Of a stretch of 64,000 nucleotides of DNA, positions 50,894 to 55,031 are shown piece after piece (positions within the stretch are counted from its first letter, which is position 1; the number at the start of each line of letters is the position of its first letter). The DNA lies in NCBI RefSeq assembly GCF_053078305.1, contig NZ_CP166879.1; one strand, written 5' to 3'. The notes beneath the pieces are model-generated. The model saw nothing but the letters and a program-made list of their open reading frames with translations. It did no database searches and was not told where the DNA came from. A program made the translations under genes and the position numbers.

Positions 50894-52057
50894 GTGGAAC
50901 AGATTAATTCAAATAAAAAACATTCTAACAGAAGAAAATACTTTTCTTTATTGGCGATAGTTTTATTTATTGCGTTTTCAGGTGCTTATGCCTATTGGTC
51001 AATGGAATTAGAAGACATGATTAGTACAGATGACGCCTATGTCACGGGGAATGCAGATCCAATTTCTGCACAAGTCTCAGGTAGTGTCACTGTAGTTAAT
51101 CATAAAGATACGAACTACGTTCGACAGGGTGACATTTTAGTTTCACTGGATAAAACTGATGCCACTATCGCACTCAATAAAGCTAAAAATAATCTGGCAA
51201 ATATTGTTCGGCAAACGAATAAACTGTACTTACAGGATAAACAATACAGTGCCGAAGTCGCTTCAGCACGTATTCAGTATCAACAATCTTTAGAAGATTA
51301 TAACCGTCGTGTGCCTTTAGCGAAGCAGGGGGTTATTTCAAAAGAAACGCTGGAGCATACCAAAGATACGTTAATAAGTAGCAAAGCGGCATTGAATGCC
51401 GCTATCCAGGCTTATAAAGCGAATAAAGCTTTAGTAATGAACACACCATTAAACCGTCAGCCACAAGTCGTTGAAGCTGCGGATGCAACCAAAGAAGCCT
51501 GGTTGGCGCTTAAACGTACGGATATTAAGAGTCCGGTTACCGGCTATATTGCCCAGAGAAGTGTTCAGGTCGGCGAAACAGTGAGCCCCGGACAATCGTT
51601 AATGGCTGTCGTACCGGCACGTCAAATGTGGGTTAATGCCAACTTTAAAGAAACACAACTCACGGATGTACGGATTGGTCAATCGGTCAATATTATCAGC
51701 GATCTTTATGGTGAAAATGTTGTGTTTCATGGCCGGGTGACAGGGATCAATATGGGAACCGGCAATGCGTTCTCCTTATTACCTGCACAAAATGCGACAG
51801 GGAACTGGATCAAAATCGTTCAGCGTGTACCGGTTGAAGTTTCTCTTGATCCAAAAGAACTCATGGAACACCCCTTGCGCATTGGTTTATCGATGACTGC
51901 AACTATTGATACGAAGGACGAAGACATTGCTGAGATGCCTGATCTGGCTTCAACCGTGACCTCCATGCCTGCTTATACCAGTAAGGCTTTAGTTATCGAT
52001 ACCAGTCCGATAGAAAAAGAAATTAGCAACATTATTTCGCATAATGGACAACTTTAA
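50894..52057 (+). CDS. emrK: multidrug efflux membrane fusion protein (EmrA-like)
   Basis: 387 aa; N-terminal TM anchor, HlyD-family coiled-coil/lipoyl regions; divergent from evgA. Confidence 0.9.
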   Translation: MEQINSNKKHSNRRKYFSLLAIVLFIAFSGAYAYWSMELEDMISTDDAYVTGNADPISAQVSGSVTVVNHKDTNYVRQGDILVSLDKTDATIALNKAKNNLANIVRQTNKLYLQDKQYSAEVASARIQYQQSLEDYNRRVPLAKQGVISKETLEHTKDTLISSKAALNAAIQAYKANKALVMNTPLNRQPQVVEAADATKEAWLALKRTDIKSPVTGYIAQRSVQVGETVSPGQSLMAVVPARQMWVNANFKETQLTDVRIGQSVNIISDLYGENVVFHGRVTGINMGTGNAFSLLPAQNATGNWIKIVQRVPVEVSLDPKELMEHPLRIGLSMTATIDTKDEDIAEMPDLASTVTSMPAYTSKALVIDTSPIEKEISNIISHNGQL

Positions 52058-53595
52058 TGGCAATCACTAAATCAACTCCAGCACCATTAACCGGTGGGAC
52101 GTTATGGTGCGTCACTATTGCATTGTCATTAGCGACGTTTATGCAAATGTTGGATTCCACTATTTCTAACGTCGCAATACCGACAATATCTGGCTTTCTG
52201 GGAGCATCAACAGACGAAGGCACCTGGGTTATCACCTCGTTTGGCGTAGCAAATGCCATTGCGATCCCTGTTACCGGCAGGCTGGCACAAAGAATAGGCG
52301 AATTAAGGTTATTTTTACTTTCAGTCACTTTTTTTTCGCTGTCTTCCTTAATGTGTAGTTTATCGACCAATCTTGATGTGTTGATATTTTTTAGAGTCGT
52401 TCAGGGGTTAATGGCAGGGCCGTTAATTCCACTGTCACAGAGTTTATTATTAAGGAATTATCCACCAGAAAAAAGAACATTTGCTCTGGCATTATGGTCA
52501 ATGACCGTGATTATAGCTCCGATATGTGGGCCGATATTAGGCGGATATATTTGCGATAACTTTAGCTGGGGTTGGATATTTTTAATCAATGTCCCTATGG
52601 GTATTATCGTCCTGACATTATGCTTAACCTTACTTAAAGGAAGAGAAACTGAGACTTCACCGGTCAAAATGAATCTACCAGGACTGACCCTGTTAGTGCT
52701 CGGTGTTGGTGGCTTGCAAATTATGCTTGATAAAGGGCGCGATCTGGATTGGTTCAACTCGAGTACAATAATAATATTAACAGTAGTATCAGTTATTTCT
52801 CTGATCTCTTTAGTCATTTGGGAGTCGACCTCAGAGAACCCGATTCTTGATCTCAGTTTGTTTAAGTCCCGTAATTTCACCATTGGTATAGTGAGTATCA
52901 CATGCGCGTATTTATTTTACTCTGGAGCGATCGTCCTTATGCCGCAGTTACTCCAGGAAACGATGGGGTATAATGCGATATGGGCCGGACTTGCTTATGC
53001 GCCCATCGGCATCATGCCACTATTAATTTCACCTTTGATAGGACGTTATGGCAACAAAATAGACATGCGGTTGTTAGTGACATTTAGTTTTTTGATGTAT
53101 GCGGTTTGCTATTACTGGCGTTCTGTGACATTTATGCCAACGATTGATTTTACAGGCATCATTTTGCCACAGTTTTTCCAGGGGTTCGCCGTTGCCTGTT
53201 TCTTTTTACCCTTAACAACGATTTCGTTTTCAGGGTTGCCAGATAATAAATTTGCCAATGCCTCGAGTATGAGTAATTTTTTTCGTACCTTGTCAGGATC
53301 AGTTGGTACGTCGTTGACAATGACGCTGTGGGGGCGACGCGAATCGTTACACCATAGTCAGTTGACAGCAACCATCGATCAATTTAACCCTGTGTTTAAT
53401 TCATCGTCACAAATTATGGATAAATACTATGGTTCGCTTTCAGGAGTTCTTAATGAAATTAATAATGAAATAACCCAGCAGTCACTTTCTATTTCTGCAA
53501 ATGAGATTTTCCGTATGGCGGCTATTGCTTTTATCTTACTTACGGTTTTGGTTTGGTTTGCGAAACCGCCGTTTACAGCGAAAGGCGTTGGGTGA
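52057..53595 (+). CDS. emrY: MFS multidrug efflux transporter (EmrB-like, 14-TM)
   Basis: 512 aa MFS ORF; start overlaps emrK stop (TAATGG). Confidence 0.9.
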   Translation: MAITKSTPAPLTGGTLWCVTIALSLATFMQMLDSTISNVAIPTISGFLGASTDEGTWVITSFGVANAIAIPVTGRLAQRIGELRLFLLSVTFFSLSSLMCSLSTNLDVLIFFRVVQGLMAGPLIPLSQSLLLRNYPPEKRTFALALWSMTVIIAPICGPILGGYICDNFSWGWIFLINVPMGIIVLTLCLTLLKGRETETSPVKMNLPGLTLLVLGVGGLQIMLDKGRDLDWFNSSTIIILTVVSVISLISLVIWESTSENPILDLSLFKSRNFTIGIVSITCAYLFYSGAIVLMPQLLQETMGYNAIWAGLAYAPIGIMPLLISPLIGRYGNKIDMRLLVTFSFLMYAVCYYWRSVTFMPTIDFTGIILPQFFQGFAVACFFLPLTTISFSGLPDNKFANASSMSNFFRTLSGSVGTSLTMTLWGRRESLHHSQLTATIDQFNPVFNSSSQIMDKYYGSLSGVLNEINNEITQQSLSISANEIFRMAAIAFILLTVLVWFAKPPFTAKGVG

Positions 53596-53702
53596 TGGTA
53601 AAAGCAGGGGGTTATAGCGGGTAAGACCGGGGATCTTAAGTCTGCGCCATCGGCAGCATCGCTCACCCAGGGAAAGGATGGCGATGCTGCGTTGAAATGT
53701 TA

Positions 53703-55031
53703 TTAACGGCCTTTTGCCAGATATTGCTCCATCTCTTCTTCCGGCACCATTCCACCTCCCGTCGCCCACACCAGATGAGTGGTATTACGCAGTTGTTCTG
53801 CGCTGAAACCGTGCATCTGTTGGTAACTTACTGATGCACACACGCGCTGAGGTCCGGCCATACCCGCCAGTGCCGAAGGTTCAAGACGAATACCTTCTTC
53901 CTGCGCCAGCCAGCCAAGCATGTCATACATGGTTTGATCGCTAAGGGTATAGAAGCCATCCAGCAGACGCTCCATTGCCCGCCCGACAAAGCCTGATGCG
54001 CGACCAACTGCAAGGCCATCCGCTGCGGTAAGGTTGTCGATACCAATATCCTGAACAGAAATCTGATCGTGTAATCCTGTATGGACGCCTAACAACATAC
54101 AAGGGGAGTGCGTTGGTTCGGCAAAAAAGCAGTGAACATGATCGCCAAACGCCAGTTTAAGCCCGAATGCGACGCCACCAGGACCACCGCCAACACCACA
54201 CGGCAGATAGACAAACAGAGGGTTATCAGCATCGACGATACGGCCTTGCTGGGCAAATTGCGCTTTAAGACGCTGGCCAGCGACGGAATACCCAAGGAAC
54301 AACGTGCGGGAATTTTCGTCATCAATAAAGAAACAGTTCGGGTCAGACTGCGCTGCTTTACGTCCTTCCTCGACGGCAACACCATAATCTTGCTCATATT
54401 CCACGACCGTAACGCCATGGCTGCGCAGTTTCGCTTTTTTCCATGCCCGGGCATCAGCAGACATATGCACTGTCACCTTAAAGCCAATGCGGGCGCTCAT
54501 AATGCCGATTGATAACCCCAGATTTCCGGTTGAGCCCACAGCAATGCTGTATTGGCTAAAGAACTGTTTAAACTCCGGAGAAAGCAGTTTGCTGTAGTCA
54601 TCATCAAGCGTCAGCAACCCCGCTTCCAGAGCCAGTTTTTCTGCGTGTGCCAGGACTTCATAAATCCCGCCGCGTGCTTTTATGGAGCCGGAAATGGGCA
54701 AATGGCTATCTTTTTTCAGTAACAGTTGCCCGCTGATCGGTTGTTGATATTCCTTTTCCAGCCGTTTTTGCATAGCCGGAATGGCAACCAGTTCTGATTC
54801 AATAATCCCCCCAGTGGCAGCAGTTTCAGGAAATGCTTTTGCCAGATAGGGTGCAAAACGGGATAAGCGCGCATGGGCGTCCTGAACATCCTGTTCGGTC
54901 AGGCCAACATAAGGTAAACCTTCAGCCAATGAGGTCGTGCCAGGATTAAACCAGGTGGTTTCTTTAAGAGCAACCAGATCCTTTACCAACGGATACTGGG
55001 CGATGAGCGAGTTCATTTTAGCGTTTTCCAT
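53703..55031 (-). CDS. dsdA: D-serine ammonia-lyase (D-serine dehydratase)
   Basis: 442 aa PLP enzyme [31 protein letters not shown]..., PLP lysine in SGSIKARGG. Confidence 0.93.

Follow-up and report, generated by a model that had tools for sequence, protein, structure and literature searches.

The gap between emrY and dsdA in Escherichia coli raises the question of why two converging genes are separated by a perfect inverted repeat, and which of their transcripts, if either, that repeat serves. The DNA analyzed (the window) was a 64-kb stretch of an E. coli chromosome, in which the 211 nt around the site were 100% identical to strain Combat11I9. This 211-nt site was matched in 5398 of 5426 complete E. 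coli genomes, with flanks annotated as emrY and dsdA; the gene names used here are taken from the annotation of the 100%-identical E. coli record. An initial annotation of the window had described a perfect 10-bp stem with an 18-nt loop and no flanking T-run, lying in a 107-bp convergent gap, and had suggested either a stabilizer of transcripts or a protein-binding site.

Geometry and folding of the inverted repeat

The descriptive part of that annotation was borne out. The two arms (Table 1) are 100% complementary, the gap extends from the end of emrY (+ strand) at 53595 to the dsdA stop codon (- strand) at 53703-53705, and a terminator scan of both strands called no site combining a hairpin with a T-run. 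The figure of 18 nt is correct as the spacer between the 10-bp arms but not as the loop of the dsdA-sense fold, where five further pairs (53676-53680 with 53664-53668, one of them U-G) bring the stem to 15 bp and leave a loop of 7 nt. On the + strand the same U-G pair becomes a C.A mismatch. RNA folding, which had been suggested as a check, predicted a stable hairpin on both strands: the free energies for the 46-nt hairpin were -27.4 kcal/mol on the - strand and -23.2 kcal/mol on the + strand, with z values of -6.46 and -4.56, and none of 200 shuffles was as stable. In the dsdA-sense direction the hairpin starts 12 nt past the dsdA stop codon, and in the other direction it lies 58-95 nt beyond the emrY stop codon.

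The stem 10-mer was found at these two places only within the window. When the window was shuffled with dinucleotides preserved, perfect 10-mer inverted repeats separated by loops of 3-30 nt turned up about 2 times per 64 kb, corresponding to about 0.003 expected per 107-bp gap, which makes chance an unlikely source of the repeat. An Rfam E-value scan of 53000-54300 returned only chance-level matches (best E 0.9), among them a weak match to ArcZ whose 13.8 bits fell short of the gathering score, 66. Nothing was found by a promoter and terminator scan of 53300-54000, and the MG1655 annotation carries no REP or other feature at the emrY/dsdA gap. A second predicted helix at 53619-53650 (-) was dropped, being unconserved among E. 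coli lineages. An alternative 7-bp pairing, CGCCATC/GATGGCG, joins 53645-53651 with 53677-53683 (+) and overlaps the main stem; in the yidF genes of Leclercia and Silvania an analogous pairing, GCCATCA/TGATGGC, is the main predicted helix.

Table 1. Features at the emrY/dsdA junction, in window coordinates.
Feature	Position	Strand	Remarks
emrY CDS	52057-53595	+	convergent with dsdA
Equivalent of MG1655 2,480,768 (+), best-scoring coordinate	~53465	-	188 nt downstream of hairpin; arithmetic mapping
C-rich, G-poor tract	53553-53642	-	directly downstream of hairpin on dsdA-sense transcript; candidate rut region
Full dsdA-sense stem-loop	53653-53690	-	10 bp, 1-nt bulge (53663), 5 bp, 7-nt loop (53669-53675)
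Outer stem arm GCAGCATCGC	53653-53662	written on +	3' arm in dsdA-sense hairpin; yidF-remnant codons Q-H-R (CAG CAT CGC)
Outer stem arm GCGATGCTGC	53681-53690	written on +	5' arm in dsdA-sense hairpin; yidF-remnant codons A-M-L (GCG ATG CTG)
yidF 3'-end remnant	53654-53695	+	13 codons plus stop, translates to QHRSPRERMAMLR and stop
Mirror C-rich, G-poor tract	53701-53790	+	antisense to dsdA coding end; candidate rut for emrKY read-through
dsdA (D-serine ammonia-lyase) CDS	53703-55031	-	3' UTR contains hairpin

Origin in the coding end of yidF

The origin of the repeat was sought in 80 dsdA loci from other species of Enterobacterales. In 34 of the 80, for example in Citrobacter, Salmonella, and Klebsiella, an intact convergent yidF gene was present with its stop codon no more than 60 nt from that of dsdA, and in 30 of these 34 the yidF stop lay no further than 5 nt inside dsdA or 16 nt beyond it. 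At one further locus yidF lay 931 nt away from dsdA (L065), and two loci carried yidF remnants only (L009 and L038). The product of the convergent gene in Citrobacter has 176 aa and ends in MRDLIKQHRSPMELMAMLR, and two DUF202 genes come next. Its E. coli homologue is annotated as yidF, encoding a radical SAM protein, in the yidHGF cluster; the name yidF rests on the RefSeq annotation, and a Pfam search of the 176-aa YidF returned no domain. The C-terminus KQHRSPMELMAMLR of the intact Citrobacter protein is also the usual tail among the 34 dsdA-linked loci.

Alignment of these loci shows the inverted repeat to be the surviving tail, the last 13 codons, of a yidF gene that formerly converged on dsdA. 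The window holds no intact yidF ORF, and the 13 codons that remain are homologous to the yidF 3' end in sequence, in frame, and in position relative to dsdA. A block running from TCAACGCAGCATCGCCATC to GGTGAGCGATGCTG, that is, from about 6 nt before the stem to the end of the stem, aligns across E. coli, the other Escherichia clades, E. albertii, Citrobacter, Salmonella, and the E. coli emrD/yidF junction. Beyond the stem the sequence has decayed in the Escherichia remnants, and upstream of the remnant yidF homology is lost in E. coli and extends over about 20 codons in two Escherichia clade loci (L009 and L011). The initial annotation had recognized the hairpin and missed its identity.

E. 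coli also retains a native yidF, convergent with emrD, which provides a second copy for comparison. At the native junction (L089 1494-1545 in E. coli XL1-Blue, and L091 in E. albertii) only 7 nt separate the two stop codons, and a homologous 10-bp stem with one compensatory pair different (GCAGCATCGT / ACGATGCTGC) lies inside the coding end of yidF. There the sequence is translated, with the tail KQHRSPMELMTMLR; the window copy is non-coding, and the U-rich stretch that follows the native stem has been lost from it. Position -4 of the tail is Ala in the window remnant and in the dsdA-linked yidF of Citrobacter and Salmonella, and Thr in the native E. coli yidF. This argues that the remnant arrived with dsdCXA and was not derived from the native gene. 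Within the collection of papers searched, none covered both yidF and dsdA and none discussed a dsdA terminator hairpin. On these alignments, the new point is the origin: the hairpin was embedded in, and has outlived, the coding end of yidF.

A separate observation was made in Klebsiella indica (L032), where identity to Citrobacter sp. Cu233 is 90-98% on the dsdA side and over the first 60 nt at the yidF 3' end, hairpin included, while the remainder of yidF is 70-87% identical to K. oxytoca. This pattern suggests that K. indica imported dsdCXA together with the hairpin through a recombination event that crossed over within the conserved tail of yidF.

Selection on pairing and retention after gene loss

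Pairing statistics were computed on 20 distinct sequences. The share of paired cells was 91.4% in the dsdA sense and 84.6% in the opposite sense. When the partners were slid against each other pairing was 17-61%, compared with 91.4% in register; a slide of 3 nt still paired 50-65%, owing to the codon-repeat composition of the arms (CAG/CTG and CAT/ATG). The observed covariation score for the 20 sequences was reached by no shuffle. Double-sided changes were seen at two stem pairs (U-A to G-C in four sequences; C-G to G-C in three and to U-A in one), and these represent perhaps three independent compensatory events. In the native yidF of E. coli and E. albertii the C-G to U-A change combines a synonymous CGC to CGT with an Ala-to-Thr replacement on the opposite side. 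The K. pneumoniae-type sequence (CAGCAGCGG/CCGCTGCTG) carries two pair swaps, His-to-Gln with Met-to-Leu in one case and Ala-to-Pro opposite CGG in the other. The pair changes came at a cost to the protein: H was exchanged for Q along with M for L, and A for P or T where the facing Arg codon changed synonymously. In Pseudocitrobacter an 11-bp stem was kept with its register shifted by 3 nt.

Codon usage in the stem was nearly fixed at synonymous sites (GCG 14/14, CTG 20/20, CAG 19/20, CAT 14/16), whereas equally conserved neighboring residues used varied codons (Leu-16 CTG 11/20, Val-20 7/20, Gly-34 8/20). In four lineages, 93-99.9% of synonymous recodings of the encoded peptide folded less stably than the observed hairpin. 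At the level of these alignments, the pattern shows that the stem has been under nucleotide-level selection for pairing. The YidF tail is also strongly conserved as protein, so that part of the nucleotide conservation is protein-driven. Among 36 YidF homologues the covariation expected at the protein level (H-M versus Q-L) was not clean, several tails combining H with L, and the DNA of such tails formed weakened hairpins. This indicates that the hairpin is limited to certain lineages and is not universal in yidF. The lineages with a hairpin-bearing yidF are Escherichia, Citrobacter, Salmonella, the K. pneumoniae type, and Pseudocitrobacter; some other yidF genes have only weak hairpins despite close convergent neighbors.

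As to the strand on which the structure acts, in 34 of 44 sequences the dsdA/emrD-sense strand gave the more stable hairpin, and the inner extension (5 bp, or 4 bp in the shared Citrobacter-type fold) requires a U-G pair that is C.A on the opposite strand. Single-sided wobble cells gave no clear strand bias, about 9 fitting the dsdA sense and about 8 the other strand. The fold models favor the dsdA sense, and do so only through the fixed inner U-G pair and the overall fold energies.

The stem has also persisted where the rest of yidF has gone. In E. albertii a 13-nt deletion has shortened the loop to 5 nt, on a stem of 12 bp (z -5.9). A stem of 11-14 bp with a 4-9-nt loop stands ahead of a co-directional gene in Kluyvera ascorbata and K. 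georgiana, and the hairpin at one Kluyvera locus (L019) had a z of -6.6. The stem was likewise kept in two other Escherichia clades and in a Raoultella remnant. Across the Escherichia remnants (E. coli, the other clades, and E. albertii) the 20 arm positions differ by about 5%, two of the three arm changes being G-U wobbles on the dsdA-sense strand; the loop and flanks are 20-30% different or unalignable. Within E. coli, the 42-nt hairpin was at least 90% identical in 5394 of 5426 complete genomes and the adjoining 42 nt of spacer was detectable in only 4024 of 5426, figures that represent a few haplotypes rather than thousands of independent observations.

Other loci served as natural controls. 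Between dsdA and yidF, K. oxytoca and K. spallanzanii have a canonical terminator, and the repeat is broken. The yidF of Kluyvera sichuanensis, which lies away from a convergent junction, has no hairpin. Every dsdA locus without this stem that was examined has another hairpin, a terminator, or a REP element just past dsdA.

Some variation within E. coli was noted as well. About 30 of the 5426 genomes are without the hairpin. In one of them, strain AF56 (L007, NZ_OZ546963.1), homology stops 38 nt past the emrY stop, at about window position 53633, and phage genes (for a DNA circularization protein and a baseplate assembly protein) replace the hairpin and dsdA. In strain AVS0453 (L005) dsdA is annotated as a frameshifted pseudogene, and one arm of the retained hairpin has a G-to-A change. 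In a few genomes the dsdA-proximal region, hairpin included, is present twice (at most two places per genome), which is consistent with the two dsdCXA loci reported for some K1 strains.

Rho-dependent termination and the proposed role of the hairpin

The hairpin is flanked symmetrically by C-rich, G-poor tracts, one antisense to dsdA and the other made up of spacer and sequence antisense to emrY. The tract downstream of the hairpin in the dsdA sense (53642-53553) has a C content of 0.38-0.42 and a G content of 0.12-0.15, and its C/G ratio, 2.6-3.6, exceeds the 99th percentile of the window; its assignment as a candidate rut region is based on this composition and not on Rho binding. The mirror tract has a C/G ratio of about 3.3, again above the 99th percentile.

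Published data from K-12 place Rho-dependent termination on the same strand. A Rho termination region antisense to emrY was reported at MG1655 2,480,768 (+), with a Rho score of 3.87 and a p value of 3.9e-9 (Adams et al. 2021, PMC7815308, supplementary file 2). Reads upstream and downstream of this coordinate were 86 and 26 without bicyclomycin, and 216 and 253 with it (PMC7815308). These regions were defined with 800-nt windows, so that the position is approximate, and were measured in K-12 rather than in the present strain; the coordinate was transferred to the window (Table 1) by way of the dsdA and emrY positions in MG1655 and the 107-bp spacer, which is identical. Because the drop in coverage is abolished by bicyclomycin, the hairpin alone does not stop RNA polymerase efficiently. 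The Term-seq tables examined contained no mapped 3' end for dsdA or emrY, the table of Adams et al. (PMC7815308) having no entry for dsdA, emrY, or emrD, probably a result of poor expression in the media used. Two further Rho regions are listed in the Adams et al. data, a strong one at MG1655 2,476,726 (+), antisense to dsdC (score 8.9, p 1.4e-21), and one at 3,854,772 (-), antisense to emrD and about 340 nt past the yidF stop according to estimated yidF coordinates.

It has been reported that Rho-dependent transcripts end precisely after stable stem-loops that have no U-tract, that these structures shield the RNA from PNPase and RNase II, and that rut sites come directly after them (Dar & Sorek 2018, PMC6061677). 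The anatomy at dsdA matches that description point for point, and a protective 3' stem-loop of dsdXA is proposed on this ground. The stem-loop in the 3' UTR is stable in the dsdA sense (-27.4 kcal/mol, z -6.46), it is followed by CGAUGGCGCAGAC instead of uridine-rich sequence and was called as a terminator by no scan, a tract of rut-like composition lies immediately downstream, and bicyclomycin-sensitive termination occurs further on (in K-12, at coarse resolution). By analogy, the hairpin behaves as a member of this class, with four of its defining features present and the decisive one, a mature 3' end at the stem, predicted. It differs in being the fossil of a neighbor's coding end, which in other genera is still within coding sequence.

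A sequence of events consistent with these results can be outlined. Where the ancestral arrangement persists, the yidF coding end doubles as a stem-loop, in most cases starting no more than 16 nt after the dsdA stop. When dsdCXA was placed beside emrKY in Escherichia, the body of yidF was lost and the stem-loop kept. The dsdXA mRNA would now form a 15-bp hairpin, without a U-tract, 12 nt past the stop codon, and RNA polymerase would read through it. Rho would then load on the C-rich tract just downstream, and transcription would end about 100-200 nt further on, inside antisense emrY. Trimming by 3'-to-5' exonucleases back to the hairpin would set and protect the mature 3' end. Transcripts of emrKY arriving from the opposite direction may use the hairpin likewise, a possibility suggested by the perfect palindromic stem with a C-rich tract on each side. 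With moderate confidence, we propose that a U-tract-less hairpin derived from the yidF tail protects the 3' end of the Rho-terminated dsdXA mRNA. The stabilizing stem-loop without a T-run put forward in the initial annotation accordingly fits all the results as a structure, while its function is an interpretation of them.

An inert remnant would explain some of the same observations. The sequence is demonstrably a piece of a gene, and selection on pairing could have acted in the intact yidF, leaving a fragment in the emrY/dsdA gap that has no role there and has yet to decay. The shallow diversity of E. coli leaves room for this explanation: the strains are too close for conservation to be decisive, the contrast between hairpin and flank amounts to a few haplotypes and indels, and a common haplotype has an A.C mismatch in the stem on the dsdA-sense strand. 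Against it, the remnant is older than the divergence among E. coli, E. albertii, and the other Escherichia clades, over which the arms have changed far less than the loop and flanks (about 5% versus 20-30%). Independent deletions in E. albertii, Kluyvera, and Raoultella have spared the stem, two of them tightening the hairpin, and the stem-less dsdA loci examined all carry some other structure after dsdA. We consider inertness rather unlikely on balance. The hairpin might instead terminate transcription by itself, as a non-canonical intrinsic terminator that dispenses with a U-tract and acts, possibly in both directions, on dsdXA and emrKY (ancestrally dsdXA and yidHGF). A strong GC-rich stem of 15 bp with a 7-nt loop, immediately past a stop codon and at a convergent junction, at which transcription has to end in both directions, is what such terminators, including bidirectional ones, look like. 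Canonical terminators occupy the same place in relatives without the stem (K. oxytoca, Enterobacter), and a short U-rich stretch does follow the stem in ancestral contexts (UUUAAUCAG in Citrobacter, CUUUAUCAG at E. coli emrD/yidF, and UUUAUCAC in Kluyvera). In the window, however, the stem is followed by CGAUGGCG in the dsdA sense and GUUGAAAUG on the other strand, with neither a downstream U-tract nor an upstream A-tract and no terminator-like site called, so the hairpin was not placed in the intrinsic terminator class. Moreover, in K-12 inhibition of Rho abolishes the dsdA-sense drop in coverage, from 86 to 26 reads without inhibition versus 216 to 253 with it, and such read-through makes termination by the hairpin itself improbable.

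The protein-binding site offered in the initial annotation belongs with a wider set of explanations at the DNA level, in which the palindrome would bind a dimeric regulator or would be a recombination or cruciform site at the edge of the mobile dsdCXA segment. The repeat is perfect, its gap looks regulatory, the hairpin moves along with the dsdCXA segment, the yidF of K. indica is chimeric, and the E. coli remnant ends just past the stem. Protein binding found no support, since relatives keep the arms complementary through compensatory and wobble changes but hold them 5 or 9 nt apart instead of 18 nt, a variation that a hairpin tolerates and a dimer site of fixed geometry would not. G-U wobbles are tolerated as well, the K. 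indica junction is more simply read as homologous recombination in a highly conserved stretch, and the sequence is not a repeated element, each genome having one copy at dsdA and the yidF homologue, and K-12 no annotated feature. A DNA-level site is in our judgment very improbable. REP elements are likewise palindromes in convergent intergenic gaps that could stabilize an upstream mRNA, and REP-like elements follow dsdA in Salmonella and at several Enterobacter loci. A REP or other dispersed repeat was rejected, the 211-nt and 42-nt queries each having matched a median of one place per genome rather than many copies. The dsdA hairpin is presumably also unlike the REP consensus.

The proposed protective role of the hairpin leads to a broader and more tentative suggestion, that the final 13 yidF codons form a module with two uses, as a protein tail and as an RNA 3'-end hairpin for the converging gene, whether dsdA or emrD. 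Pairing would dictate residues of the tail (H/M versus Q/L, and A versus T/P), and the module would outlive its gene and move with dsdCXA in horizontal transfer. If this is true, the emrY/dsdA hairpin is coding sequence exapted into a 3' UTR element, possibly for both convergent operons. The general understanding of termination is unchanged, with no new mechanism and an ordinary element of unusual origin. The locus is a clean natural example of RNA structure in a coding end constraining the choice of codons and amino acids and being kept after gene loss. The boundary of the dsdCXA segment is likewise marked by the remnant, which preserves a trace of a former linkage to yidF like that in Salmonella and Citrobacter. 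For E. coli itself, the hairpin gives the dsdXA operon for D-serine detoxification a concrete candidate 3' boundary that can be tested, and this operon bears on niche choice in uropathogenic and enterohaemorrhagic strains.
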